From the IMG/VR virus record IMGVR_UViG_2541047804_000005: a DNA stretch of 36,214 bases; one strand, given 5' to 3'. Origin of the DNA: a virus (lineage: Duplodnaviria; Heunggongvirae; Uroviricota; Caudoviricetes). The stretch's first letter is position 1, and each line of letters opens with the position of its first letter. Under the pieces are notes generated by a model. The model had not been told where the DNA came from, did not search any database, and worked only from the letters and a program-made list of their open reading frames with translations. Positions 17,068 to 36,214 of this stretch are shown piece after piece. Position numbers and translations under genes: made by a program.

Positions 17068-17338
17068 GATGTTACCGTAGTATGTGAGTATCCATCGAAT
17101 AGATACCAAGCAAAAAAGCTCCCGAAGGAGCCTTCATTTTCACTTTTTTAAATCCAACGACAGACGGCTGGCATTTAAGTATTGTGAAATATTATCAAAT
17201 GTAATCATCATTGATTTACAAAAGATACATTTTGCCCCGAAAGGATTCATGTCAGAAACATCAAAAGATGATGTTCTATACTGGGAACCATGACAACACG
17301 GGCATCTAAAGTGAATATGGTTTGTAATATTGTCTACC

Positions 17339-17551
17339 TCAAAGCGCCACTACATGAACAGCGGCAGGACCTTTAGGTCCGTTCTCAATACCAAATTCAA
17401 CTTCCTGATTCTCAGTTAATGTTTTGAAATCGTTGCTCTGAATTGCTGAGAAATGGACAAACACATCTTTGCTGCCATCTTTCGGCGTGATGAAACCAAA
17501 ACCTTTTTCAGGGTTAAACCATTTCACTAAACCAGTCATTTTGTTAGACAT
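17339..17551 (-). CDS. cspI: Cold shock protein, CspA family (CspI-like)
   Basis: 70-aa ORF with the cold-shock domain signature KWFN.EKGFGFI and VFVHFSAI (RNP1/RNP2 motifs); a long AT-rich upstream leader region follows on the minus strand. Confidence 0.8.
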
Positions 17552-17914
17552 AATTATTACCTTTTGAAGAAATTAGCCCTTGGGCAGAATGGTCCGAAAA
17601 AAAATATCAGAGAGAAAAACCAACAAGGAAATCTCAAGAGGTACAAATAATAAAATTATAACAATGACTGCTTCAGATAAATTTGTAACAAACCAGAACA
17701 CCATTAACGCATGATTAACCACCCATAGCAAGGATTACTTTTGTAAAGAAAAACACAGCAATGAAAGAATAGCTTTATTTATTAATAATAACGTGTCATT
17801 CTGATTAAGACCTTTTATCTTACCCTTAAGATTTCAGGAATTTTGGCTCATGGAAGAGTCCTTTTTATTTAAATTTTACATTCCGCGATGTAAATGTTCC
17901 GATTTAATATTACC

Positions 17915-19939: not shown

Positions 19940-20223
19940 TTTGAGATTGTGGTGCTTTTTGTGGGAGTCATCCACTTACGCACTTTGTTTTGCCATGCCA
20001 GCAGTTAGCTTCTGCTGTAAAACTATTCATGCAGCAAACCTGCACTTCACCACAATGGTTAGCATACTTTTCCTGATTAAGATTTTGCCAAATATGCTAG
20101 CCATTGTTTCATGTATTGGACCTCCTTACTTTTTATTAAAGAGATCCAATATTCACTACTCTGTCCGTATCTCTACTCAGGCATCAGCCTTCTTCGTTAT
20201 CGTATACAGACGAGCGATGAATT

Positions 20224-20439
20224 TTAATCAGTAATGATGACATTTGCTGCTGCAGGACCTTTAGCACCACTCTCTATAGAGAAGGTAACCTTTTGACCTT
20301 CAAATAAGGTTCGATAATTATCATTCTGAATCGCAGAAAAATGCACAAACACATCTTTACTACCATCAACAGGAGAAATAAAGCCGAAACCTTTATCAGC
20401 GTTAAACCATTTTACTAAACCAGTCATTTTATTTGACAT
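20224..20439 (-). CDS. cspB: Cold shock protein, CspA family (CspB-like)
   Basis: 71-aa [26 protein letters not shown]...VFVHFSAI with both RNP motifs; divergent from the cspF-like gene as in Qin. Confidence 0.75.
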
Positions 20440-20739
20440 TCTACATTCCTTAACTTGAGCCTTTCGGCATAAATGGTTTGCATAACAGAAACGACTTCGT
20501 ACTTAATTGGAGAGACTCAAAGAAGGAATAAGTGAATAACACCTGAAATGAGAACTGCTTTAGTAAACTACTTCGTATATCGTCTGTTCTTCAAACCGAC
20601 GCAATCATTAACGCATAGTTGAACATATGAAGCAATGTTTATTTTAGACATCCAGCCATCTTCAACCCCATCAAAAAACTATAGCTTTCTTCAGGAACGT
20701 GTGTATAGTGCGCCAAGTTATCAGTATTAAGGAATTTTT

Positions 20740-21373: not shown

Positions 21374-22126
21374 TTATCTCGTCACCTTCCTCAATTGCGC
21401 TTCCGCGTATGCTTCTTCCTGCCAGCACTTTGTTACCAGTTTATCAATGACGTCCGCATACCCCTTATACCACTGATAATCGGTCAGGTCTGGTACCAGC
21501 TTCTGGACATGACGTCGTGCCAGCGTGGTCGGTAAACGACTAAATCGGTTTCCATTACAACGCCCACAAATCTTATATACCGGTACGCCATGAAACCGGG
21601 TTCTTTTTTCATCCAGAACAATCCCTTTACCCTTACACCCTCTGCACGCTGTGCTGACTTCGCCCTTACCATGGCAATGCTGACATAGTTCCTTCACCCA
21701 TTCTTCCTTGATTACAGATTCCCCGCGTCTGTAGTGTTTCACCACTTCGCGCAATACATTATAAAATCCCGTACCTGAACAATGCTCACAGCGAGCCTTA
21801 CTTGCCGCAGACCTGGAGTAATCAGCAAAGGCAAAATTCACAAGGTAAGGAATAATCTGTAACCGGATTTCTTCACTCAATTTGTTCAATGTCGGGTTAT
21901 CCAGTGCCATCGCGTAATTTAGCAGGCCTTCAATCGCAAACTGAGGGTCCTGAACACCAACTTTTGCCAGAAATAAGGCCAACCCAAGTGGTGCTTTCGA
22001 CTGCACCATCCCCTGCGCTGCCATTACATCCGTAATTGTTAAACAACCGGTGCCTGTCGCTGGAGCGTCATCGCTCAATTTTGGAGATTTTGGGGAGTAA
22101 TATTTTGGTAAGGCTTCAAGGTTCAT
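21374..22126 (-). CDS. Late antiterminator Q (phage 82 / QuuQ type)
   Basis: 250-aa ORF with several CxxC pairs (CEHCSGTG, CQHCHGKG, CRGCKGKG, CGRCNG) characteristic of 82-type Q proteins; located upstream of the lysis region. Confidence 0.8.
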   Translation of the reverse strand: MNLEALPKYYSPKSPKLSDDAPATGTGCLTITDVMAAQGMVQSKAPLGLALFLAKVGVQDPQFAIEGLLNYAMALDNPTLNKLSEEIRLQIIPYLVNFAFADYSRSAASKARCEHCSGTGFYNVLREVVKHYRRGESVIKEEWVKELCQHCHGKGEVSTACRGCKGKGIVLDEKRTRFHGVPVYKICGRCNGNRFSRLPTTLARRHVQKLVPDLTDYQWYKGYADVIDKLVTKCWQEEAYAEAQLRKVTR

Positions 22127-22639: not shown

Positions 22640-22654
22640 GGTAATGACTCCAAC

Positions 22655-23158
22655 TTATTGATAGTGTTTTATGTTCAGATAATGCCCGATGACTTTGTCA
22701 TGCAGCTCCACCGATTTTGAGAACGACAGCGACTTCCGTCCCAGCCGTGCCAGGTGCTGCCTCAGATTCAGGTTATGCCGCTCAATTCGCTGCGTATATC
22801 GCTTGCTGATTACGTGCAGCTTTCCCTTCAGGCGGGATTCATACAGCGGCCAGCCATCCGTCATCCATATCACCACGTCAAAGGGTGACAGCAGGCTCAT
22901 AAGACGCCCCAGCGTCGCCATAGTGCGTTCACCGAATACGTGCGCAACAACCGTCTTCCGGAGCCTGTCATACGCGTAAAACAGCCAGCGCTGGCGCGAT
23001 TTAGCCCCGACGTATCCCCACTGTTCGTCCATTTCCGCGCAGACGATGACGTCACTGCCCGGCTGTATGCGCGAGGTTACCGACTGCGGCCTGAGTTTTT
23101 TAAATGGCGGAAAATCGTGTTGAGGCCAACGCCCATAATGCGGGCGGTTGCCCGGCAT
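22655..23158 (-). CDS. insB: IS1 transposase InsB frame (expressed as InsAB' by -1 frameshift)
   Basis: 167-aa ORF inside IS1 with the IS1 InsB sequence as remembered. Confidence 0.85.
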
Positions 23159-23352
23159 CCAACGCCATTCATGGCCATATCAATGATTTTCTGGTGCGTA
23201 CCGGGTTGAGAAGCGGTGTAAGTGAACTGCAGTTGCCATGTTTTACGGCAGTGAGAGCAGAGATAGCGCTGATGTCCGGCGGTGCTTTTGCCGTTACGCA
23301 CCACCCCGTCAGTAGCTGAACAGGAGGGACAGCTGATAGAAACAGAAGCCAC
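23077..23352 (-). CDS. insA: IS1 InsA (transposition repressor)
   Basis: 91-aa [46 protein letters not shown]..., the canonical InsA length and zinc-finger sequence. Confidence 0.9.
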
Positions 23353-23407
23353 TGGAGCACCTCAAAAACACCATCATACACTAAATCAGTAAGTTGGCAG
23401 CATCACC

Positions 23408-24312: not shown

Positions 24313-24564
24313 TTATTCTTCTGCAAAAGCAGAAAAGCCAGCTTTTATTCCGATCTCTTTCAATGCCTGTAATGAAGTGACAAACTCACCTTCGCGCAAG
24401 ATAAATCCGTCCGTGACCCGAGCATCCACAAAATTAATTAACGCAGCCCCATTCTTTCGCAAACACATAATGCGGTAATGACTAACAAGATTTCCATTTT
24501 CAACGCACACAGCATAGAGGCCATCTTCACAAAAAATTTTACGCAGTTCTTCGATGTTCATCAT
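24313..24564 (-). CDS. Hypothetical prophage protein (83 aa), possibly Rem-like by position
   Basis: ORF between hok and the DUF968 gene, where Qin carries rem (83 aa); sequence not independently recognised. Confidence 0.35.
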   Translation of the reverse strand: MMNIEELRKIFCEDGLYAVCVENGNLVSHYRIMCLRKNGAALINFVDARVTDGFILREGEFVTSLQALKEIGIKAGFSAFAEE

Positions 24565-24780: not shown

Positions 24781-24936
24781 TTACTCCTCAGGTTCGTAAG
24801 CTGTGAAGACAGCGACCTCCGTCTGGCCGGTTCGGATTCGTACCTCGCAGAGGTCTTTCCTCGTTACCAGTGCCGTCACTATGACGGTTAAACAGATGAC
24901 GATCAGGGCGATTAACATCGCCTTTTGCTGCTTCAT
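24781..24936 (-). CDS. hokD: Hok-family type I toxin (HokD/RelF-like)
   Basis: 51-aa ORF MKQQKAMLIALIVICLTVIVTALVTRKDLCEVRIRTGQTEVAVFTAYEPEE: single transmembrane helix plus the conserved Hok C-terminal Cys region. Confidence 0.85.
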   Translation of the reverse strand: MKQQKAMLIALIVICLTVIVTALVTRKDLCEVRIRTGQTEVAVFTAYEPEE

Positions 24937-24993
24937 AGCCTGCTTCTCCTTGCCTTTCGGCTCGTAAGAGGCTAACCTACATGTGTCTAGCAT
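24781..24993 (-). CDS. Mok-like reading frame (in-frame N-terminal extension of hok)
   Basis: ATG at 24991-24993 opens a 70-aa frame (MLDTCRLASYEPKGKEKQA-MKQQK...) that runs into hok, resembling MokC-type arrangement. Confidence 0.5.
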   Translation of the reverse strand: MLDTCRLASYEPKGKEKQAMKQQKAMLIALIVICLTVIVTALVTRKDLCEVRIRTGQTEVAVFTAYEPEE

Positions 24994-25050
24994 GAAATTG
25001 GCCTCAGATTAATGTTAAGCGTCTTGCAGGACGCGTAATGTTAACTGGGG
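24985..25050 (+). ncRNA. Predicted Sok-like antisense RNA
   Basis: Plus-strand TTGCCT-N17-TAACCT (24950-24978) would start an antisense transcript across the mok start codon and ribosome binding site; a short hairpin GCGTC-TTGCAG-GACGC lies at 25010-25025. No clear U-tract terminator; ends are approximate. Confidence 0.3.
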
Positions 25051-25111
25051 CTTTTCTCTATCTGCCTTTGGTGTTCATGCCCGAGGCAGATAGCCTCAAG
25101 CACCCGCAGCC

Positions 25112-25610: not shown

Positions 25611-27398
25611 ATGGACGATATTAATATCAGCCTCGACGAACTTAACACTATTGATTTATCCCCCTTAATCCAGAGTAAGCTGCCAGTTACCTGCTTTGAT
25701 ATCACAAAGTATCTTTCTAGCCTAGGTGATGGAAGAGCGGAGATAAGACTGCTAACCCATATTTGCGGTTTTCACTTTCGTCCCGAAAATCCACAGGTAC
25801 CATTTGGTCCGTGCTTTCAAAGCAGCCAAGGTAGATCTGCAATTCCGGATGACATTAACGGGTTGTCGCTGGAGGTACTTTCTCAATTTTGCCCGACGAT
25901 AGAGCTACCCGAACTTCAAGCTCGTATTGCTGATACACTTTGGGTTCGTAAAATTGGTGGAATCCGTTTTCCTTTGCTGGCAGTCCGTGCTTATTATGCG
26001 TCCAGTATAGCTATTATGACATCGCAAGGGACGTGGGTTAGTGCTTTAGAACGCCTAGAGCGTGCGCTTAGGCTGTGTTGTTTTTTTCGAAAGAATACTG
26101 ATTTCAGGGATGAATTTGATCAGCTTTCGGCACATCTACTAGCAGAGTATGAACGTACCAGAGAACAAGGCGATTCACCTTATCCGCTGCGACTCCTGCA
26201 ACTCGATATCGACTGTAAAGTGAGTGAGCCATCTTTTATTGCCCAGGAACTCCTGTTTCTGACAAAAAACTATCTGGCTCAAAAATTATTTTCATTTGCC
26301 GTCGATGCCTGTAAAACCGCAATCACGATTGCGAATAGGTGCTGTGACAGAGATACACAGTTTGAATTCTGGCGGCTTCTTGCCGATACACATCTGGAAG
26401 AGTCAAAATTCCAAGATGGCGGTATGATTTCGGCAGCCTGCATGCAGAATGCTATTGAAGCACTGGCTAATATTCCAGGAACCCGAATAGAACGTCTTGC
26501 GCTGTATGAAGAAATGCGTGATTACCAAATCGAATCCCGTCACCAGATGTCTATCCTTCAGTCTCCCCCTCAAGATATTAGTGAGATTGTCCATCAAGCC
26601 AAGAGTCGGGTAGTCGGAAGAGATATGTTTGATATGGTTTTCAGACTTGCGATGCTGGTCTGTCGGCCAACCAGCATTGAGAGACTTAAGGCTCAAGCAA
26701 TAGAACAAAAGGCCAACAGCATAGCTTGGATGTTTGGATCAACACATATTGATCATGAGGGAATGACACTTGCTCGCATACCCGCAGGATTGGGGATTGA
26801 TGATGCAAATGGGGCAGTTATTTGGCCCATAATGATGACGAGAATGCGTATCGACCATGAGTTGGCAGTAGCTGGGCAAATTATTCCTGCTACAGATGAG
26901 ATCACAATGAAATATCCAATCTCGGAGGCGTTTTTTCGCGATATGTTCATCAATCATCCCTTCATCCCGTTTGGGCATGAAGAGTTTTTCATCAAGGGTA
27001 TGGTTTGCGGTTTCAATGGAGATTTTATGACGGCATGCCACGTGTTGATTCCCCAGATCGAAAATAGTCTGAGATATGTGGCTAAAATTAAAGGTGAGGA
27101 ACCATCGCAGCTTCACGGGGACGGTTCGCAAGAGCGAAATGGACTCAAGGGATTACTAGATAATCCACTGATTATTGAAGCTTTCGGCGTAGACATAATT
27201 GGCAATCTTCAGGCCTTACTGGTAGATAAAATCTATGGTGATTTACGAAATCAACTAGCTCACGGATATGTGCCTGCCGGTTACTACAATCAACCTCCCT
27301 GCATTTTTGCATGGTGGCTTGTATTGCACATTCTAATGAACCCTACGGCGAGATACTGGCAAGCCACTTATGGCCAAGAGAGTGAGGCTCAGACTTAA
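25611..27398 (+). CDS. Orphan 595-aa protein with C-terminal HEPN-like Rx4HxY motif; candidate abortive-infection or defence RNase
   Basis: Long uninterrupted ORF with AGGTGA ribosome binding site, opposite in orientation to both neighbours, lower GC than the flanking phage genes. C-terminal LRNQLAHGY (R546...H551.Y553) fits the HEPN Rx4-6H / HepT Rx4HxY catalytic signature. No N-terminal domain recognised. Confidence 0.6.
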   Translation: MDDINISLDELNTIDLSPLIQSKLPVTCFDITKYLSSLGDGRAEIRLLTHICGFHFRPENPQVPFGPCFQSSQGRSAIPDDINGLSLEVLSQFCPTIELPELQARIADTLWVRKIGGIRFPLLAVRAYYASSIAIMTSQGTWVSALERLERALRLCCFFRKNTDFRDEFDQLSAHLLAEYERTREQGDSPYPLRLLQLDIDCKVSEPSFIAQELLFLTKNYLAQKLFSFAVDACKTAITIANRCCDRDTQFEFWRLLADTHLEESKFQDGGMISAACMQNAIEALANIPGTRIERLALYEEMRDYQIESRHQMSILQSPPQDISEIVHQAKSRVVGRDMFDMVFRLAMLVCRPTSIERLKAQAIEQKANSIAWMFGSTHIDHEGMTLARIPAGLGIDDANGAVIWPIMMTRMRIDHELAVAGQIIPATDEITMKYPISEAFFRDMFINHPFIPFGHEEFFIKGMVCGFNGDFMTACHVLIPQIENSLRYVAKIKGEEPSQLHGDGSQERNGLKGLLDNPLIIEAFGVDIIGNLQALLVDKIYGDLRNQLAHGYVPAGYYNQPPCIFAWWLVLHILMNPTARYWQATYGQESEAQT

Positions 27399-27616: not shown

Positions 27617-28018
27617 TTATCCCTGATAAAATGCCAGTATGCGCTGCATAACTTCACTCATCCGGCACTCGCGACAGATTATGTTTAGGCGACTGTCGTA
27701 GCGACGTATTTCTCCATCAGGTAACGACCAGATAAGGTCCGGATCAACCACAGCTGTTTTCTTCACCTTTGCCCTCGAGAGTTTTTTGCGGGCGTTTTGC
27801 CAGTCCTTACGCGCCTGTTCAGACGGGAATAACCCGTAGCCGGAGTTGTATACATCGCCACTGGCTACCAGCTCTCTGGCAAGAACGCTCATCAGATATC
27901 TAGTCGCACCTGTTTTAGCTTCCAGTTGCCGTAACGTCTCACGACCGCTCTGGCGCACGAGTTCCACCACCTGCCCTTTAATTTTTTCCCGCTCTTCTTG
28001 TGTAAAAACTTTTGCCAC
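27617..28018 (-). CDS. Hypothetical protein downstream of the replication initiator (133 aa)
   Basis: ORF in the position occupied by the helicase loader (P) in lambda but far smaller and without recognisable ATPase motifs; C-terminal CRECR. Confidence 0.4.
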   Translation of the reverse strand: MAKVFTQEEREKIKGQVVELVRQSGRETLRQLEAKTGATRYLMSVLARELVASGDVYNSGYGLFPSEQARKDWQNARKKLSRAKVKKTAVVDPDLIWSLPDGEIRRYDSRLNIICRECRMSEVMQRILAFYQG

Positions 28019-28058
28019 AAGTCCCCCTTAAAATTACCTCATGACCTGAAATCAAAAC

Positions 28059-29024
28059 TTATCCTCTGAAACCAGGCGGAATTTCTGTATCCGGTTCAGA
28101 AATATGATTAACACAACGCTGTACAGGTGAACGCCCCAGGCGGATGACCAGTTCGTCCCATTTTTCGCGGAGCTTTGACGGGCTCATGATGTTTTTTACC
28201 CAGAATGGATCCCGCTGTACCCGACCAAACATTTCACAAATTTGTCTGTGGCTTCTGCCATCCAGCATCCGCATTGTGCGCACATCATTGGCCCAGACAG
28301 TCCAGTTAGGCTCTTTTGGTCGCATGATCTCGCCATCATCACTGGCGGCCTGTTCGTAGAGACCCACGATCCGCCCCCATATCCACTGCGCACACGCCAG
28401 ATCCTCCTGGCTACCCCACTGGCGTTTTTTCGCACTAAACACAACTGCGCCAGGGTGCCGGATTAAAAAATCCTGTTCAGCCGTCTGCGGGTCCGGTTGC
28501 GAAGCTTCCGGACGAAAAGTGTTTTTATTCTCTGTAGTAATCTCTGTTGTATTCTCTGTAGGATCATCGGGCCATTTTGACCCGATGACATTGGGTCGTT
28601 TTGAACCAATGGAGCGTTTCATTTTGACCTCTTCCATCGTGTCATTTTGACCTGATGGAGCGGCGCATTTTGAACCGATGGATTCGCTCAATTTGCCATC
28701 ATCTAAAAGCTCGCTTCCATAGTTAATCGTGTAGAAATTGGTCATATCGCGCTTTGATTTATTGAGCTTTTCACAACGCAAAAGCCCCAGCGTTTTCAGA
28801 CTTGCAAACGCGCGCTTTAACGTTGACTCTGACCAGAATGGGAACTGTTCCAGCCATTGTTCCGTTGTGTTGTAAATCCAGCGAACACCATCACATTCCA
28901 TGCCGGAATTGGTATCTCTCAACCAGTAATGCAACTGCTGCAACACAATGGCTTCATTTAAGCCAATCTTCATCGCAAGCTGTGTGTTTATAACCAGTGG
29001 GCGTTCAGCAAAAAGAAGGCTCAT
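28059..29024 (-). CDS. Replication initiator protein (lambda O-like) with embedded origin iterons
   Basis: ATG at 29022-29024 (MSLLFAERPL...); N-terminal winged-helix-like region, central repetitive segment (SIGSK, RSIGSKRPNVIGSK) encoded by DNA iterons, distinct C-terminal domain. The track start at 29078 is a TTG. Confidence 0.7.
   Translation of the reverse strand: MSLLFAERPLVINTQLAMKIGLNEAIVLQQLHYWLRDTNSGMECDGVRWIYNTTEQWLEQFPFWSESTLKRAFASLKTLGLLRCEKLNKSKRDMTNFYTINYGSELLDDGKLSESIGSKCAAPSGQNDTMEEVKMKRSIGSKRPNVIGSKWPDDPTENTTEITTENKNTFRPEASQPDPQTAEQDFLIRHPGAVVFSAKKRQWGSQEDLACAQWIWGRIVGLYEQAASDDGEIMRPKEPNWTVWANDVRTMRMLDGRSHRQICEMFGRVQRDPFWVKNIMSPSKLREKWDELVIRLGRSPVQRCVNHISEPDTEIPPGFRG
28527..28704. 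repeat. Origin of replication iteron array (ori) inside the initiator gene
   Basis: Five to six direct repeats of consensus CATTTTGAMCYGATGG at 28573, 28597, 28620, 28643, 28666 (degenerate copy at 28689), spaced 23-24 bp, adjoined by ATTCTCTGTAG repeats at 28527 and 28551 and an AT-richer stretch. Confidence 0.65.
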
Positions 29025-29526
29025 AATTCCATCCAGCTTTTTGTTGGTATTGCTGTCGATACGCAAGTTTGAAAGCAATTGCTTTTTCTATAAGTTCGTC
29101 AGTTTCACGATCCACTACGGCAGGATCAGCAAAAAGCAGTCCGGACTCCACCACATCGCCATATTCTTTGTTTAACCCGGCGATCATGTACGTGATGCTT
29201 TTTCCGTCACTAATTTCACGATACAACCTGAAATCATTAATCCGGATAGCCTCCATAATTGCAGGCACTAGCGCCGTGAACTTTTCACGCTTATCCCTGG
29301 TGTCGATAGCCTTCCAGCGTTCGAATATCTTCACTCGATTAACGCCAAGCGCTCGCTGATCAACCGCGCCACCTTCATCTGTGACACGCTGAACATCGAT
29401 GTTCGGGCGCTCTTTCAAAGCCCAGAATGCTTCAGTGATTAATATCGTCGCCTGCTCCTGTGTCATTCCTGGTCGACATATCCAGGCATCCAGAGCCTCA
29501 CGAGCCTGTTCAGGAGTGATTTTCAT
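29005..29526 (-). CDS. Hypothetical early protein between the Cro-like gene and the replication initiator (173 aa)
   Basis: ORF in the position of cII/YdaT-type genes; no motif recognised with confidence. Confidence 0.4.
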   Translation of the reverse strand: MKITPEQAREALDAWICRPGMTQEQATILITEAFWALKERPNIDVQRVTDEGGAVDQRALGVNRVKIFERWKAIDTRDKREKFTALVPAIMEAIRINDFRLYREISDGKSITYMIAGLNKEYGDVVESGLLFADPAVVDRETDELIEKAIAFKLAYRQQYQQKAGWNYEPSFC

Positions 29527-29737
29527 TGTTCAACCGCCCCGCCCGCTTCGTCTTACGATATTCGTCATAAACCTTGGGATCATACAGAAGCTCGCCGCCA
29601 GATGCCTCCTGTAGACGCATCGCGCGACCTTCAGGAACCAGCTCTTGCCATTGAGAAACAGCAGATGGGTCAACGCCAGCAGCTTTCGCTACTTTGGCTT
29701 TCGTACCGTAAAAATTAATTACGTCTGATTTAAACAT
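29510..29737 (-). CDS. dicC: Cro-like regulator, DicC-like
   Basis: 75 aa from ATG 29735-29737 (MFKSDVINFYGTKAKVAKAAGVDPSAVSQW...YDPKVYDEYRK...NENHS) with GGAGGT ribosome binding site; divergent from the repressor gene. Confidence 0.7.
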   Translation of the reverse strand: MFKSDVINFYGTKAKVAKAAGVDPSAVSQWQELVPEGRAMRLQEASGGELLYDPKVYDEYRKTKRAGRLNNENHS

Positions 29738-29750
29738 CGCACCTCCAGTA

Positions 29751-29764
29751 TTGAGTTTTCTCAA
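29751..29764. promoter_or_regulatory. Candidate operator in the dicC-dicA intergenic region
   Basis: TTGAG-TTTT-CTCAA inverted half-sites, with further CTCAAG half-site-like repeats at 29774-29797, in the 77-bp divergent promoter region. Confidence 0.45.
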
Positions 29765-29814
29765 TGCTAATCACTCAAGGAATCTCAAGTCAAGGGTTAT
29801 TAAGATATCTAAAT

Positions 29815-30222
29815 ATGAACGAGAAAACTTTAGGTCAACGCATTAGAGAAAGACGTAAGCAGGTAGGTTTAAGTCAAAACGGTTTAAGCAAAGCTGCTGG
29901 CGTATCTGGCTCATCAATTTCATTATGGGAAAGTGACCATACAGCCCCGCGCGGGCAAAATTTGCATCGCCTCGCCGAGGTATTGCAATGTTCACCAACC
30001 TGGATACTGTTTGGCGACGAGGACAAAACACCAGCTCCCCCTGTTTCACTCGATAGTGCCTTAGACTTATCGGAAGATGAGTTAGAGATGCTGCGTTTGT
30101 ATCGCGCACTTCCTAAATCAGAGCAACAAGCACAACTCAGCGAACTCCGCGCCCGCGTTGAGAATTTTAATCGCCTGTTCACCGAGCTATTAGAGGCTCG
30201 CAAACGCAACAAGCATCAATAA
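29815..30222 (+). CDS. dicA: Prophage repressor, DicA-like (HTH-XRE, no peptidase domain)
   Basis: 135 aa from ATG 29815; HTH LGQRIRERRKQVGLSQNGLSKAAGVSGSSISLWE and conserved LQCSPTWILFGDEDK; closely resembles DicA as remembered. Confidence 0.8.
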   Translation: MNEKTLGQRIRERRKQVGLSQNGLSKAAGVSGSSISLWESDHTAPRGQNLHRLAEVLQCSPTWILFGDEDKTPAPPVSLDSALDLSEDELEMLRLYRALPKSEQQAQLSELRARVENFNRLFTELLEARKRNKHQ

Positions 30223-30286
30223 TCATCCCTTCACAAAATTTTAAAGCCTTACATTTCAATGTATTGGCTTTATCTTGCGCCAATAC

Positions 30287-30338
30287 TTGAGTTTTCTCAT
30301 CAAAAAGCCTTGACGAAAAATAATGAGAAAACTAAATT
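30287..30338 (+). promoter_or_regulatory. Candidate dicB-operon promoter flanked by inverted operator copies
   Basis: TTGACG (30310-30315)-N17-TAAATT (30333-30338); TTGAGTTTTCTCA at 30287-30299 and its reverse complement TGAGAAAACT at 30324-30333 bracket the -35 element. Confidence 0.45.
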
Positions 30339-30414
30339 ACCTCCATCAACACACCGCACGGTGTTCTCAGCAAACAGTTCCGCTACCCCGGCGTTAAGGG
30401 GAAATGAGGTCAGC

Positions 30415-30570
30415 ATGGATACTATCGATCTTGGCAACAACGAATCTCTGGTGTACGGCGTGTTTCCAAACCAGGACGGCACGTTCACCGCAATGACGTA
30501 TACCAAAAGCAAAACGTTTAAAACCGAAAATGGTGCCCGTCGCTGGCTGGAAAGAAACTCAGGTGAGTGA
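30415..30570 (+). CDS. ydfA: YdfA-like small protein (51 aa)
   Basis: ATG 30415 with GAGGT upstream; MDTIDLGNNESLVYGVFPNQDGTFTAMTYTKSKTFKTENGARRWLERNSGE; first gene after the repressor as in Qin. Confidence 0.55.
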   Translation: MDTIDLGNNESLVYGVFPNQDGTFTAMTYTKSKTFKTENGARRWLERNSGE

Positions 30571-30571
30571 T

Positions 30572-31147
30572 ATGGATTTCGACACAATCATGGAAAAGGC
30601 TTACGAAGAATACTTCGAAGGCCTTGCCGAAGGCGAAGAAGCTCTCAGCTTCAGTGAGTTTAAACAGGCACTCAGAATAAGAATGCGCTCTCACAATGAC
30701 GCGGAGCACAAATATGAGAAGCAAAATCAGACCGCAGAAAATTTTGTTCTGGAACCCGGAGAAACGCTTTTCAAAATTCCCGTTACGTGCCCCATTTGCG
30801 GTTTTACATCAGAAGAACTTGACGACTCCTGTAACAATCAGGAAACAACCAAGTATGTCGAAGATGATACCGAGTGCGCACGAAGAACGATTATATCCAC
30901 GAGTCCAAACTCCAGGACCAATAAATCTCACTTTGAGAGGGTGATTAATCCACTCCCCCAAACCAATAAAAAAGATGCCGGAGGACAAAAAAACCAATGG
31001 AACAACGGGATATCTGTCAAAAAAAGACGTTCCATTAAAGACAAACAACGCAGCGCCAACAACTGTAAGCGCTTTATACCAGTAATCAATTTTCATGTTC
31101 TTAAGCGGATTTATTGGTGGTTGCGACATTGCTTAATGAATCCTTAA
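30572..31147 (+). CDS. Hypothetical protein in the ydfB/ydfC position (191 aa, zinc-ribbon CPICGF, basic low-complexity C-terminus)
   Basis: ATG 30572 two nt after the ydfA stop; the C-terminal half is unusually basic and overlaps an alternative-frame ORF (30696-30944), so the true gene structure is uncertain. Confidence 0.35.
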   Translation: MDFDTIMEKAYEEYFEGLAEGEEALSFSEFKQALRIRMRSHNDAEHKYEKQNQTAENFVLEPGETLFKIPVTCPICGFTSEELDDSCNNQETTKYVEDDTECARRTIISTSPNSRTNKSHFERVINPLPQTNKKDAGGQKNQWNNGISVKKRRSIKDKQRSANNCKRFIPVINFHVLKRIYWWLRHCLMNP

Positions 31148-31406
31148 AACTGTGGTGATTTTAAGGATACCACCTCGCCTGACGTGGTTAAAAGCAGGCA
31201 CACAACACGAAAGCGCACGGCGAAGTTCGTCTCACTGTACGGTGTCGTCAAATTTAATTCGACCGTGCGCTTCCGGTTGTGGCAACCCGCGAAATGGCGC
31301 GGCGGTAAGTATGGCGGGGTTATTCCTTCCCCGTTGAGGACACCGAGTTGTCAGGTTGACCATACGCTTAAGCGACAACCCCGCTGCAACGCCCTCTGTT
31401 ATCAAT

Positions 31407-31459
31407 TTTCTGGTGACGTTTGGCGGTATCAGTTTTACTCCGTGACTGCTCTGCCGCCG
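31407..31459 (+). ncRNA. dicF: DicF small RNA
   Basis: TTTCTGGTGACGTTTGGCGGTATCAGTTTTACTCCGTGACTGCTCTGCCGCC followed by GTTTTT matches DicF as remembered, including the GGCGG...CCGCC terminator stem; located just upstream of dicB. Confidence 0.75.
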
Positions 31460-31633
31460 TTTTTAAAGTGAATTTTGTGATGCGGTGAATGCGGCTAAGC
31501 GCACGCGGAACAGTTAAAACCAAAAACAGTGTTATGGGTGGATTCTCTGTATCCGGCGTTAATTGTTAACTGGTTAACGTCACCTGGAGGCACCAGGCAC
31601 TGCATCACAAAATTCATTGTTGAGGACGCGATA

Positions 31634-31822
31634 ATGAAAACGTTATTACCAAACGTTAATACGTCTGAAGGTTGTTTTGAAATTGGTGTCACTATCAGTA
31701 ACCCTGTATTTACTGAAGATGCCATTAACAAGAGAAAACAAGAACGGGAGCTATTAAATAAAATATGCATTGTTTCAATGCTGGCTCGTTTACGTCTGAT
31801 GCCAAAAGGATGTGCACAATGA
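31634..31822 (+). CDS. dicB: Cell division inhibitor DicB
   Basis: 62-aa ORF MKTLLPNVNTSEGCFEIGVTISNPVFTEDAINKRKQERELLNKICIVSMLARLRLMPKGCAQ, matching DicB as remembered. Confidence 0.8.
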   Translation: MKTLLPNVNTSEGCFEIGVTISNPVFTEDAINKRKQERELLNKICIVSMLARLRLMPKGCAQ

Positions 31823-32010
31823 ATTCAGCATTTGCGCTTGTTCTGACAGTTTTTCTTGTTTCCGGAGAGCCAGTTGATATTGCAGTCAGTGTTCACAGGA
31901 CAATGCAGGAGTGTATGACTGCAGCAACCGAACAGAAAATTCCCGGTAACTGTTACCCGGTCGATAAAGTTATTCACCAGTATAATATCGAAATCCCGGC
32001 AGGTCTTTAA
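31819..32010 (+). CDS. ydfD: YdfD-like small membrane protein
   Basis: 63-aa ORF from ATG 31819, overlapping the dicB stop (ATGA); N-terminal hydrophobic segment FALVLTVFLV. Confidence 0.55.
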   Translation: MNSAFALVLTVFLVSGEPVDIAVSVHRTMQECMTAATEQKIPGNCYPVDKVIHQYNIEIPAGL

Positions 32011-32103
32011 AACAGTTCCGTAATAAATATCCGGTTTCATTCTTATATGCCAGCAATGGCAGGGATTTGTTCATCCTTAAATCTGTCATGAGGTTAAAAC
32101 AAA

Positions 32104-34575
32104 ATGAGTAAAGTCTTTATTTGCGCCGCTATTCCTGACGAACTGGCAACAAGGGAAGAAGGCGCTGTGGCTGTAGCCACAGCCATTGAAGCTGGCGACG
32201 AACGCCGTGCTCGAGCAAAATTTCACTGGCAATTCCTGGAACATTATCCGGCTGCTCAGGACTGCGCTTATAAATTTATTGTCTGCGAGGATAAACCTGG
32301 CATACCCCGCCCTGCCCTCGATTCATGGGATGCTGAATATATGCAGGAAAACCGCTGGGATGAGGAGTCTGCTTCTTTTGTCCCGGTTGAGACTGAATCC
32401 GATCCGATGAACGTCACTTTTGACAAGCTGGCCCCTGAAGTACAGAACGCTGTCATGGTTAAGTTCGACACATGTGAAAACATCACCGTTGATATGGTTA
32501 TTAGCGCACAGGAATTGTTGCAGGAAGACATGGCAACATTCGACGGACATATCGTTGAAGCGTTGATGAAAATGCCAGAAGTTAACGCCATGTATCCGGA
32601 GCTTAAGTTGCACGCCATTGGGTGGGTTAAGCATAAATGTATTCCTGGTGCTAAATGGCCCGAAATTCAGGCAGAGATGCGCATCTGGAAAAAACGTCGC
32701 GAAGGTGAACGCAAGGAAACCGGAAAATACACGTCTGTTGTTGATCTCGCCCGCGCCAGAGCCAATCAACAGTACACTGAAAATTCAACAGGAAAAATCA
32801 GCCCGGTCATTGCTGCCATTCATCGCGAATACAAGCAGACATGGAAAACACTGGATGACGAACTGGCCTACGCTCTCTGGCCTGGTGATGTGGATGCCGG
32901 AAACATTGACGGCAGCATCCATCGCTGGGCAAAAAATGAAGTTATCGATAACGACCGCGAAGACTGGAAGCGTATCTCGGCATCAATGCGCAAACAGCCT
33001 GATGCCCTTCGCTACGACCGCCAAACTATTTTTGGCCTTGTCCGTGAACGTCCGATCGACATTCACAAAGATCCCGTAGCACTGAACAAATATATCTGCG
33101 AATACCTGACGACAAAGGGCGTGTTTGAGAATGAAGAAACAGACCTGGGCACTGTTGATGTTCTCCAGTCATCAGAAACACAAACTGATGCAGTGGAAAC
33201 TGAGGTATCTGATATCCCAAAAAATGAAACCGCGCCGGAAGCTGAACCATCTGTAGAGCGTGAGGGGCCGTTCTATTTCCTCTTCGCAGATAAGGACGGA
33301 GAAAAATACGGTCGCGCAAACAAACTTTCTGGTCTGGATAAGGCACTGGCTGCTGGCGCCACTGAAATCACAAAAGAAGAATATTTTGCCCGAAAAAATG
33401 GCACATACACGGGCTTACCGCAAAATGTAGATACCGCTGAAGATTCAGAACAACCAGAGCCGATAAAAGTTACCGCTGACGAAGTAAACAAAATTATGCA
33501 GGCAGCCAATATCATCCAGCCTGACGCCGATAAGTTGCTTGCTGCATCACGTGGTGAATTTGTTGAAGGGATTAGTGACCCGAATGATCCGAAATGGGTT
33601 AAGGGGATCCAGACCCGCGATTCTGTGAACCAGAACCAGCATGAATCGGAACGGAACTACCAAAAAGCGGAACAAAACAGCCCAAATGCGTTACAAAACG
33701 AGCCAGAAACGAAACAGCCTGAATCAGTGGCGCAACAGGAAGTGGAAAAAGTCTGCACCGCCTGCGGTCAGACCGGCGGCGGCAACTGCCCTGATTGTGG
33801 CGCGGTAATGGGCGACGCAACATACCAGGAAACATTCGATGAAGAGTATCAGGTTGAAGTTCAGGAAGATGATCCGGAGAAAATGGAAGGCGCTGAACAT
33901 CCACACAAGGAGAACACTGGCGGCAATCAGCATCACGATAGCGATAATGAAACTGGCGAGACGGCAGATCACTCAATTAAGGTGAACGGTCATCACGAAA
34001 TCACATCCACCAGCAGGACGTGTGACCATCTAATGATCGACCTTGAAACCATGGGAAAAAATCCTGATGCCCCGATCATCTCAATAGGTGCAATATTTTT
34101 CGATCCGCAAACCGGAGATATGGGACCGGAATTTATTAAGACTATCGATCTGGAAACTGCTGGCGGAGTCATTGATCGGGACACCATTAAATGGTGGTTT
34201 AAGCAATCACGCGAAGCGCAATCTGCCATTATGACCGATGAAATCCCGTTAGATGATGCACTGTTACAATTGCGGGAATTTATCGACGAAAACTCCGGTG
34301 AATTTTTTGTTCAGGTCTGGGGAAATGGAGCCAACTTCGACAACACGATTTTGCGCCGTTCATACGAACGGCAGGGGATCCCCTGCCCGTGGCGTTACTA
34401 CAACGATCGCGATGTACGCACAATCGTTGAGCTGGGGAAAGCCATAGACTTCGATGCCAGAACGGCTATTCAATTCGAAGGTGAGCGCCATAATGCACTT
34501 GATGACGCCCGTTACCAGGCAAAATACGTTTCAGTTATCTGGCAAAAACTGATCCCGAGTCAGGCTGATTCTTAA
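32104..34575 (+). CDS. Large early protein with C-terminal DEDDh 3'-5' exonuclease domain
   Basis: 823-aa ORF with GAGG ribosome binding site; C-terminal region has DnaQ-like motifs (MIDLETMG; WGNGANFDNTIL; HNALDDARY), preceded by an acidic linker and a CTACG...CPDCG zinc ribbon; sits next to xis-int. Confidence 0.6.
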   Translation: MSKVFICAAIPDELATREEGAVAVATAIEAGDERRARAKFHWQFLEHYPAAQDCAYKFIVCEDKPGIPRPALDSWDAEYMQENRWDEESASFVPVETESDPMNVTFDKLAPEVQNAVMVKFDTCENITVDMVISAQELLQEDMATFDGHIVEALMKMPEVNAMYPELKLHAIGWVKHKCIPGAKWPEIQAEMRIWKKRREGERKETGKYTSVVDLARARANQQYTENSTGKISPVIAAIHREYKQTWKTLDDELAYALWPGDVDAGNIDGSIHRWAKNEVIDNDREDWKRISASMRKQPDALRYDRQTIFGLVRERPIDIHKDPVALNKYICEYLTTKGVFENEETDLGTVDVLQSSETQTDAVETEVSDIPKNETAPEAEPSVEREGPFYFLFADKDGEKYGRANKLSGLDKALAAGATEITKEEYFARKNGTYTGLPQNVDTAEDSEQPEPIKVTADEVNKIMQAANIIQPDADKLLAASRGEFVEGISDPNDPKWVKGIQTRDSVNQNQHESERNYQKAEQNSPNALQNEPETKQPESVAQQEVEKVCTACGQTGGGNCPDCGAVMGDATYQETFDEEYQVEVQEDDPEKMEGAEHPHKENTGGNQHHDSDNETGETADHSIKVNGHHEITSTSRTCDHLMIDLETMGKNPDAPIISIGAIFFDPQTGDMGPEFIKTIDLETAGGVIDRDTIKWWFKQSREAQSAIMTDEIPLDDALLQLREFIDENSGEFFVQVWGNGANFDNTILRRSYERQGIPCPWRYYNDRDVRTIVELGKAIDFDARTAIQFEGERHNALDDARYQAKYVSVIWQKLIPSQADS

Positions 34576-34647
34576 TGTTCAACTGTCGCCGGTTGTGACT
34601 GGTATTCTGCAACCGGCGCTCGTCTAATATAAGAGATAAAGAAATCG

Positions 34648-34899
34648 ATGAGCGAAGTAATCATGATTGTCTCTCCCGGCAAATGGGTATCCGAAGAGCA
34701 GTTAATTGCGCTGAAAGGAATAAAAAAAGGTACGTTAAAAAAGGCCCGGGAAAAATCGTTTATGGAAGGAAGGGAATATAAGCATGTCGCTCATGACGGT
34801 ATGCCATGGGATAACAGTCCATGCTTTTACAACCTGGAAGAAATTGATCGCTGGATTGAGCGCCAGGCATCAGCAAGACCAAGACGTCATCTTACTTGA
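34648..34899 (+). CDS. Putative excisionase / small DNA-binding protein
   Basis: 83-aa ORF immediately upstream of the integrase; assigned by position and size. Confidence 0.5.
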   Translation: MSEVIMIVSPGKWVSEEQLIALKGIKKGTLKKAREKSFMEGREYKHVAHDGMPWDNSPCFYNLEEIDRWIERQASARPRRHLT

Positions 34900-34918
34900 C
34901 TAAAAGCCACACTAACTA

Positions 34919-36214
34919 ATGAGAGAAGTTGAAATGAAATATCCGACAGGCGTGGAAAACCATGGAGGGAAATTACGTATCTGGTTTGTTTATAAAGGCG
35001 TAAGAGTCAGGGAAAACCTGGGGGTTCCTGACACAGCAAAAAACAGGCGCGTTGCAGGTGAGCTACGCGCCTCTGTTTGTTACGCAATAAAAACTGGTGT
35101 TTTCGACTATGCAAAACAGTTTCCCTCCTCACGCAATCTGGAAAAATTTGGTGAGGCCCGACAAGATTTAACCATAAAAGAACTGGCTGAAAAATTTCTG
35201 GCACTGAAAGAAACTGAAGTCGCAAAAACATCACTCAACACATACCGTGCCGTCATCAAAAATATCCTGAGCATAATCGGTGAAAAAAATCTTGCCTCAT
35301 CGATTAATAAAGAAAAATTACTGGAGGTTCGTAAAGAGCTACTGACTGGATACCAGATCCCCAAAAGTAACTATATTGTTACACAACCAGGGAGATCGGC
35401 TGTAACTGTAAATAATTACATGACAAATCTTAACGCCGTGTTCCAGTTTGGTGTTGATAACGGTTACCTGGTAGATAACCCGTTTAAGGGGATCTCGCCA
35501 TTAAAGGAATCAAGAACCATTCCGGATCCTCTTTCGCGGGAGGAATTCATCCGTCTTATCGATGCGTGCAGAAATCAGCAAGCCAAAAATTTATGGTGTG
35601 TTTCTGTTTATACTGGCGTTCGCCCTGGTGAGCTGTGTGCACTTGGATGGGAGGACATAGATCTGAAAAATGGAACAATGATGATCAGGAGAAATTTAGC
35701 AAAAGACCGTTTCACGGTACCAAAAACACAGGCGGGAACCAATCGGGTCATTCATCTTATTAAGCCAGCAATCGACGCTCTCCGGAGTCAGATGACATTA
35801 ACGAGACTGAGCAAAGAGCATATCATTGATGTTCACCTCAGAGAGTATGGCAGAACAGAAAAACAAAAATGCACCTTTGTTTTTCAACCTGAAGTGTCAG
35901 CGAGAGTAAAAAATTATGGTGACCATTTTACCGTTGACTCAATAAGGCAGATGTGGGACGCAGCGATAAAACGTGCCGGACTCCGCCATCGAAAATCATA
36001 TCAGTCGAGACATACTTATGCCTGCTGGTCGCTGACAGCTGGTGCTAACCCGGCATTTATAGCAAACCAGATGGGCCATGCAGATGCGCAAATGGTATTT
36101 CAGGTATACGGAAAATGGATGTCTGAAAACAATAATGCACAGGTAGCTTTGTTAAATACACAGTTAAGCGAGTTTGCCCCAACCATGCCCCATAACGAAG
36201 CAATGAAAAATTAA
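34919..36214 (+). CDS. Tyrosine site-specific integrase
   Basis: 431-aa ORF ending at the window edge; N-terminal arm-binding-like region, C-terminal catalytic region with conserved Arg in YTGVRPGE and an HTYA box. Start could be the Met at 34934. Confidence 0.85.
   Translation: MREVEMKYPTGVENHGGKLRIWFVYKGVRVRENLGVPDTAKNRRVAGELRASVCYAIKTGVFDYAKQFPSSRNLEKFGEARQDLTIKELAEKFLALKETEVAKTSLNTYRAVIKNILSIIGEKNLASSINKEKLLEVRKELLTGYQIPKSNYIVTQPGRSAVTVNNYMTNLNAVFQFGVDNGYLVDNPFKGISPLKESRTIPDPLSREEFIRLIDACRNQQAKNLWCVSVYTGVRPGELCALGWEDIDLKNGTMMIRRNLAKDRFTVPKTQAGTNRVIHLIKPAIDALRSQMTLTRLSKEHIIDVHLREYGRTEKQKCTFVFQPEVSARVKNYGDHFTVDSIRQMWDAAIKRAGLRHRKSYQSRHTYACWSLTAGANPAFIANQMGHADAQMVFQVYGKWMSENNNAQVALLNTQLSEFAPTMPHNEAMKN

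Follow-up and report, generated by a model that had tools for sequence, protein, structure and literature searches.

The stretch at 31407-31822 of the viral DNA analysed here is an intact dicBF module, namely the gene for the small RNA DicF followed by dicB; the module is real, had been correctly interpreted from its letters and is already known. Work on DicF and DicB dates back to the 1980s, and their targets, their regulation and their role in phage exclusion are published. We examined the 36,214-nucleotide record IMGVR_UViG_2541047804_000005 (the window) and found that 31407-31822 is almost certainly the canonical dicBF segment in the early-left operon of a Qin/mEp460-like lambdoid prophage lying between ydfJ and rspB on an E. 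coli chromosome, acting by the published dicBF mechanism. Sequence identity, RNA folds, operon order, promoter and operator motifs and distribution were observed directly in this work, and every biochemical step set out below is carried over from K-12 experiments with identical or near-identical sequences.

From 29815 onward the plus strand carries, in this order, the gene of a DicA-type repressor, a promoter, ydfA, a 191-aa ORF, the DicF leader, dicF, a spacer, dicB, ydfD and the genes for an exonuclease, an excisionase and an integrase, the end of the latter being the end of both the operon and the prophage (Table 1). This is the layout of the early-left, lambda PL-type operon of a Qin/mEp460-like lambdoid prophage, and the dicBp operon has been described as the equivalent of the lambda PL operon (PMC10448788 and its preprint). 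An annotated prophage of E. coli CFSAN061770 (NZ_CP023142) shares 99.98-100% identity with the window; it is sited between a truncated ydfJ and rspB, the location of Qin in K-12, and its annotation contains no pseudogene flags.

Table 1 Features of the dicBF operon and associated prophage elements, in window positions.
Feature	Position	Strand	Basis and remarks
Q antiterminator gene	21374-22126		directly downstream of ydfU in transcription order, rightward operon
IS1, 768 bp	22640-23407	-	in ydfU (DUF968); InsA and InsB Pfam matches
rem, antirepressor of DicA in K-12 Qin	24313-24564	-	98% identical to K-12 Rem; gene intact
DicC/Cro-type regulator	29510-29737	-	70% identical to K-12 DicC; Pfam P22_Cro, 3.2e-16
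Operator-like site, third copy, exact TGAGTTTTCTCA	29752-29763		between the divergent repressor genes
DicA-type repressor, 135 aa, HTH_3	29815-30222	+	Pfam HTH_3, 2.1e-15; 57% identical to K-12 DicA
Operator-like site TGAGTTTTCTCA, 12-mer, outer bases palindromic	30288-30299	+	repeat search; just upstream of the -35
dicBp-equivalent, PL-type promoter-like site, TTGACG-17-TAAATT	30310-30338	+	sigma-70 consensus scan
Operator-like site TGAGAAAACTAA, one mismatch to TGAGTTTTCTCA	30324-30335	+	overlaps the -10
ydfA (DUF1391), first gene of the operon	30415-30570	+	PF07151, 1.7e-28; DNA 99.7% identical to K-12
191-aa ORF, first ~33 codons ydfB-like	30572-31147	+	phrog_35040, 1.3e-138
Non-coding leader of the 190-nt DicF precursor	31208-31406	+	inverted repeat; near-identity to K-12 from ~31262
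DicF sRNA, 53-nt form	31407-31459	+	RF00039 match, K-12 b1574 alignment, fold
Structured dicF-dicB spacer	31460-31626	+	28-pair closing stem, 31460-31487 with 31598-31626
dicB, 62-aa cell-division inhibitor, MinC partner	31634-31822	+	K-12 identity, PF05358
ydfD, 63-aa lysis protein	31819-32010	+	Pfam DUF1482, 9e-26; function from PMC8835842
Full-length exonuclease, 823 aa	32104-34575	+	phrog_2082, PF16473; intact counterpart of K-12 pseudogene ydfE
Excisionase	34648-34899	+	Pfam DUF1233; annotation of the identical locus (NZ_CP023142)
Tyrosine integrase	34934-36214	+	Pfam Phage_integrase; stop codon is the last base of the window

DicF is located within the dicBF polycistron, between the dicBp equivalent and dicB, and its site was the sole match to the Rfam DicF family (RF00039) in a covariance-model scan of the whole window. 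The match, at 31408-31459 on the plus strand, scored 72.5 bits (gathering score, 48 bits) with E = 2.7e-14 and was full-length (model positions 1-52 of 52), with zero non-canonical pairs. Aligned with K-12 dicF (b1574, 53 nt), 31407-31459 is identical at 52 of 53 positions, the sole difference being a C to G change at 31459, the final nucleotide (nt 53), which lies past the terminator stem, before the U-tract and outside the ftsZ-pairing loop. An 80-nt query around DicF was matched by 3981 E. coli records, and in 891 of these the best match was the exact G53 allele. A search of viral contigs with the loop sequence yielded 108 DicF-like loci, in which C is the commonest base at nt 53, G, A and T also occur, and the remainder of DicF is almost invariant. 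Judged from these alignments, the position is naturally polymorphic and the change is without meaning for DicF.

The minimum free energy fold of DicF (-16.6 kcal/mol) leaves nt 1-15 unpaired, forms a hairpin from nt 16-52 and ends in GUUUUU, hairpin and U-tract together constituting an intrinsic terminator that ends at 31459-31464. This terminator was not flagged by a generic terminator scan because the hairpin contains internal loops; it is apparent on folding. The ribosome-binding site of ftsZ has its complement in the loop (nt 24-36), the seed of which is the same as in the validated K-12 RNA. In an in-silico duplex computed with K-12 ftsZ, the ftsZ of the source genome lying outside the window, nt 24-44 can pair with positions -22 to -1, across the Shine-Dalgarno sequence. 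The energy of the loop-ftsZ duplex was no better than that of shuffled sequences (124 of 1000 as good), and the full-length duplex energy, for which 32 of 500 shuffles were as good, was rejected as a test of targeting for being non-discriminating. Since the duplex fails to beat shuffles, the assignment of ftsZ as target rests on published compensatory mutations and not on computation. In K-12, the 3' half of DicF pairs with ftsZ and the 5' end with xylR (PMC5069750), and the nucleotides engaged in both pairings are all unchanged here.

The dicB frame runs from ATG at 31634 to TGA at 31822 (62 codons plus stop), with the same start and stop as in K-12, and encodes a protein identical to K-12 DicB (b1575) at 62 of 62 residues, the DNA differing by one synonymous base change. 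The protein matches Pfam PF05358 over positions 1-62 of 62 with 136.8 bits (cut-off, 27 bits; E = 1.9e-40). Given its identity to the K-12 protein for which they were tested (PMC6832061), MinC binding, filamentation and ManYZ inhibition would be expected of it. The frame lies within a longer in-frame ORF (31529-31822, plus strand) that opens with GTG at 31529 and encodes 97 aa; this ORF is annotated as the gene in some phage records, the accepted product being the 62-aa protein from the internal start, and an internal in-phase start of dicB is noted in the reference list of PMC8835842. The ATG of ydfD overlaps the dicB stop codon (ATGA), and YdfD differs from its K-12 counterpart by two amino acids. 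DicB, YdfD, the exonuclease and two overlapping ORFs gave zero matches in PADLOC.

That the DicF-like sequence might have matched by chance or be degenerate, and that the 62-aa frame might be no gene, has practically no probability left: we found no point in its favour, and it is refuted for the RNA by the RF00039 E value and the 52/53 identity and for the frame by the PF05358 E value and the 62/62 identity, in both cases to experimentally characterised genes. Chance is also discounted because the surrounding 871 bases are 100% identical in many E. coli chromosomes, in which dicB and ydfD are annotated. The sequence-only reading was therefore accurate on the module itself. Its bounds of 31407-31822 run exactly from the start of DicF through the dicB stop codon, DicF with its terminator stem and the 62-aa frame are intact as it had described, and the alignment to K-12 dicF and dicB that it had proposed revealed a DicF seed without disabling change and an untruncated dicB. 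Its portrayal of a two-part division-inhibition module agrees with functions published for identical or near-identical sequences (PMC5069750, PMC6832061), and the link to phage exclusion that it mentioned is published for DicB and ManYZ-dependent phages (PMC6832061, PMC10448788).

According to published work, an RNase III cut gives rise to a 190-nt DicF species and an RNase E cut to the 5' end of the 53-nt form (PMC10448788 and its preprint), and a downstream RNase III cut generates a 72-nt form (preprint of PMC10448788; PMC5069750). The 5' end of the 190-nt species maps to ~31270, within the 3' arm of a 13-bp stem (31208-31220 with 31263-31275), and the 3' end of the 72-nt form to ~31478, within the 5' arm of the 28-pair stem that closes the spacer. 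The AU-rich stretch directly before 31407 is, by match to the published processing, the RNase E site. Both predicted RNase III stems and the sequence at the RNase E-generated 5' end of DicF are conserved with respect to K-12; the 190-nt precursor carries substitutions at 31346 and 31373, which cost ~3 kcal/mol in one predicted internal stem.

The spacer between dicF and dicB is strongly structured, with a minimum free energy of -65.5 kcal/mol (z = -5.76; 0 of 200 shuffles as stable) and a 19-nt inverted repeat that is 95% complementary. Its closing stem is the expected RNase III site, and cleavage there is predicted to release the 72-nt form of DicF and to leave dicB with a short leader. Across 84 distinct homologous sequences, 98.9% of cells in the closing helix and 98.4% in the fold overall were paired, and the two common polymorphisms of the helix, C/U opposite G and U/C opposite G, preserve pairing. 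No significant covariation was found in the fold among these 84 sequences, the changes being of wobble type only and without excess over shuffles; the fold accordingly rests on thermodynamics and on the published cut sites.

The spacer together with the dicB start (31457-31666) aligned to the full STnc100 model (RF02076), a gammaproteobacterial sRNA candidate, with a likeness that includes the spacer closing stem and the CACCNGGAGGCACCNGGCAC hairpin; at 34.5 bits, below the gathering score of 47 bits, membership in this family was rejected. Rac-SA53 and an Actinobacillus phage match the spacer part only (31454-31618), with 88-90% identity and without the DicF body.

A further proposal, which we consider unlikely, is that the DicF terminator and the RNase III-cleavable, STnc100-like spacer (31460-31626) constitute a regulated gate in intact Qin-type phages. 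Such a gate would determine the amount of transcription and translation getting through to dicB, ydfD, the exonuclease gene, xis and int, and would couple production of the sRNA mechanistically to the excision decision, and the spacer-only versions in Rac-type and Actinobacillus phages would then mark an independent, mobile regulatory RNA element.

The module had also been placed downstream of a predicted repressed promoter, and the site at 30310-30338 bears this out, being located at the position of K-12 dicBp with operator-like repeats flanking it. Its position coincides to the base with that of the K-12 promoter TTGACC-17-TAATCT, and K-12 homology resumes directly past the -10. Repeat and pattern searches located the TGAGWWWWCTCA motif at 29752, 30288 and 30324; the operator pattern has four matches in the window against 0.98 expected, three of the four within the immunity region. 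At the same places K-12 Qin has sites of the TTAG..CTAA type, whereas those of the window are of the TGAG..CTCA type. The arrangement is that of a lambdoid immunity region, with divergent repressor and Cro genes and with putative operators repeated there and at the PL-type promoter. The repressor carries HTH_3 as its only Pfam domain, the S24 peptidase (self-cleavage) domain being absent. By these comparisons the immunity region is of a type different from that of K-12, recombined onto the same dicBF cargo. With a repressor that shares no more than 57% identity with DicA and with operators unlike those of K-12, repression of the promoter and its relief by Rem are steps that we infer; the role of Rem as an antirepressor of DicA is described in the preprint of PMC10448788. 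The combination of the dicBF cargo with a different immunity region provides a natural test of Rem action across immunity types.

In a lysogen, the DicA-type repressor (29815-30222) probably binds the TGAG-WWWW-CTCA operators that flank the -35 and overlap the -10, and its binding at the promoter would keep the operon almost silent. Repression might be lost through the Rem antirepressor (24313-24564), a spontaneous flip of the DicA/DicC switch, or stress, and derepression would then produce a polycistronic RNA spanning ydfA, the long ydfB-like ORF, dicF, dicB, ydfD, the exonuclease gene, xis and int. An RNase III cut at ~31270, an RNase E cut at 31407 and termination at 31459-31464 would yield the 53-nt DicF, and in read-through transcripts RNase III would cut within the 28-bp stem to give the 72-nt form. 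DicF is known to block translation of ftsZ mRNA (PMC5069750); here, with Hfq, its loop (nt 24-36) would pair with the ftsZ ribosome-binding site and its 5' end with the xylR and pykA mRNAs, manX presumably being acted on as well, and the predicted outcome is reduced FtsZ synthesis and a shifted sugar metabolism. Read-through transcripts would supply DicB, a protein reported to act via MinC and to exclude ManYZ-dependent phages (PMC6832061, PMC10448788). It would be expected to bind MinC and bring it to the septum, leading to dismantling of the Z ring, and DicB-MinC would disable the ManYZ permease and so block DNA injection by lambda-type phages. YdfD would act as a lysis protein translationally coupled to dicB, its effect being offset by DicB.

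The sequence-only reading further described the module as retained in an otherwise complete prophage, which is only partly right. The gene classes within the window are present, namely int, xis, repressor, cro, replication, Q, lysis, terminase, portal, capsid and tail, but IS1 splits ydfU upstream of Q. The window starts inside a tail assembly gene, and gpJ, lom, tail-fibre, tfa and pin genes, seen in CFSAN061770, lie beyond it. IS1 is bounded by terminal inverted repeats and a 9-bp target duplication, AACGACGCG, and its removal in silico restores the ydfU reading frame. A search of complete E. coli genomes for the same insertion as a single piece found none; the 12 records that seemed to span the IS1 junction proved to be joined pieces spanning 1.9-2.0 kb. 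The perfect target duplication, the existence of an otherwise 99.98-100% identical but uninterrupted copy in CFSAN061770 and the absence of the insertion from complete genomes indicate that it is very recent.

IS1 insertions are classically polar and, with this one lying upstream of Q, Q-dependent activation of the late genes may be impaired. It could be argued from this polarity, and from the splitting of ydfU directly upstream of the Q antiterminator gene, that the prophage is defective and that dicF and dicB are carried without selection as a silent relic. We deem this very improbable, as the insertion is so recent and sits in the rightward operon, outside the dicBF operon. Moreover, DicF is nearly invariant across the 108 viral loci and DicB, which diverges to ~61% identity, is nevertheless kept in frame and at the same spacing.

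The module is also widespread. An 871-bp block comprising dicF, dicB and ydfD matched 4740 of 5426 complete E. coli genomes (~87%), at a median of two places per genome, and 60 phage records, including several Stx-converting phages. Its identity is 99% in HannyBb and 97% in both mEp460_ev081 and Tritos, all isolated phages, and the Tritos record annotates DicF. The retention of dicBF by a complete phage is not unusual, and the angle is not new, since Ragunathan et al. (PMC10448788 and preprint) already point to mEp460_ev081, a functional phage carrying dicB, dicF, dicAC and rem. Of the 100 viral loci whose sequence extends 450 nt or more past DicF, 96 have DicB downstream, nearly always starting at +228 from the DicF 5' end, as it does in the window; across these loci DicF is nearly fixed.

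RefSeq annotation at identical loci, NZ_CP023142 among them, lists dicB and ydfD and leaves dicF unannotated (eight listed records), and dicF seems to be commonly unannotated outside K-12; the practical value of the present assignment accordingly lies in annotation. In the record of Aeromonas phage AP1 (MT713136, 254 kb), 247 nt at 249906-250152 are 100% identical to window positions 31397-31643. The shared stretch, E. coli DicF plus spacer, is near the end of the record and probably reflects contamination or a chimeric assembly.

The occurrence of the module in free phages bears on whom it serves. It is possible, although we would not favour it, that the module chiefly serves the phage lytic programme, providing on induction a 'kil-type' division stop together with closure of the ManYZ entry route, the benefits observed in K-12 being side effects of a crippled prophage. 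Compatible with this are the position of the module where lambda carries kil, in a PL-type operon upstream of the exonuclease, xis and int genes, its presence at 97-99% identity in the isolated phages HannyBb, mEp460_ev081 and Tritos, its repression in the lysogen (PMC10448788 and preprint) and the action of lambda Kil as an FtsZ inhibitor (PMC3961180). However, DicF accumulates in stationary phase without full induction (preprint of PMC10448788), transient expression confers ~100-fold resistance to lambda (PMC6832061), and K-12 Qin, which is unable to make phage, has retained the module intact. A role in the lytic programme and a role in the lysogen are compatible and do not exclude one another. 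Lambda Kil and Rac KilR occupy the same operon position and block FtsZ ring assembly upon derepression (PMC3961180), but they are proteins unrelated to DicB, described as acting directly on FtsZ/ZipA, with neither an sRNA partner nor a dependence on MinC.

Compared with the Qin prophage of K-12 MG1655 (dicF b1574, dicB b1575, ydfD b1576), the window shares the ydfJ-rspB site, the gene order from ydfA through dicF, dicB, ydfD and a ydfE-type exonuclease to int, the conserved leader, spacer and processing stems, the promoter position, and the presence of rem, hokD/sok and Q. It differs in its repressor (57% identity), Cro (70% identity) and operators. K-12 Qin is truncated and carries IS2, whereas the exonuclease, xis, int, replication, head and tail genes of the window are intact; the window in turn has IS1 in ydfU and a PDC-S39 candidate defence gene in place of relBE-ydfV-flxA. 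The isolated temperate phage HannyBb (PP925841) is 98.9% identical over 27621-36214, covering replication, immunity, dicBF, exonuclease, xis and int, and 96% identical in the tail genes, but differs between 25280 and 27621, where it is without the DUF4209 gene. Both HannyBb and mEp460_ev081 (LR597641) are free phage genomes with an intact ydfU, whereas the window is an integrated copy with IS1.

Within the operon itself, 30673-31190 is an alternative cassette that replaces the 3' end of K-12 ydfB and ydfC and was present in 14 of the fetched loci. Positions 30670-31189 have zero DNA match in K-12, and what the 191-aa ORF has in common with K-12 and most viral loci is limited to its ydfB-like first 101 nt; K-12 homology picks up again ~70 nt ahead of the stem in the DicF precursor that RNase III is expected to cut. 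On the opposite strand, overlapping the C-terminal two-thirds of the 191-aa ORF, lies a 106-aa ORF (30809-31129, minus strand) with three hydrophobic segments and zero Pfam, PHROG or PADLOC matches. Substitutions in 30809-31129 among 14 near-identical loci were 6 synonymous and 14 non-synonymous when read on the plus strand, and 9 and 11, respectively, on the minus strand.

Elsewhere in the window, the DUF7380/DUF4209 protein (595 aa; 25611-27398, plus strand) matches the PADLOC candidate defence family PDC-S39 (E = 8e-103). Its gene is an opposite-strand insert in the rightward early operon, at the place of relBE-ydfV-flxA in K-12 Qin, and is absent from phage HannyBb. Rfam matches above threshold were also obtained for the sok antitoxin RNA adjoining hokD (24931-25105, minus strand), which matches K-12 Qin, and for cspA-type thermoregulator leaders at 17312-17697 and 20208-20600 (both minus strand), which precede cspI and cspB as they do in K-12 Qin.
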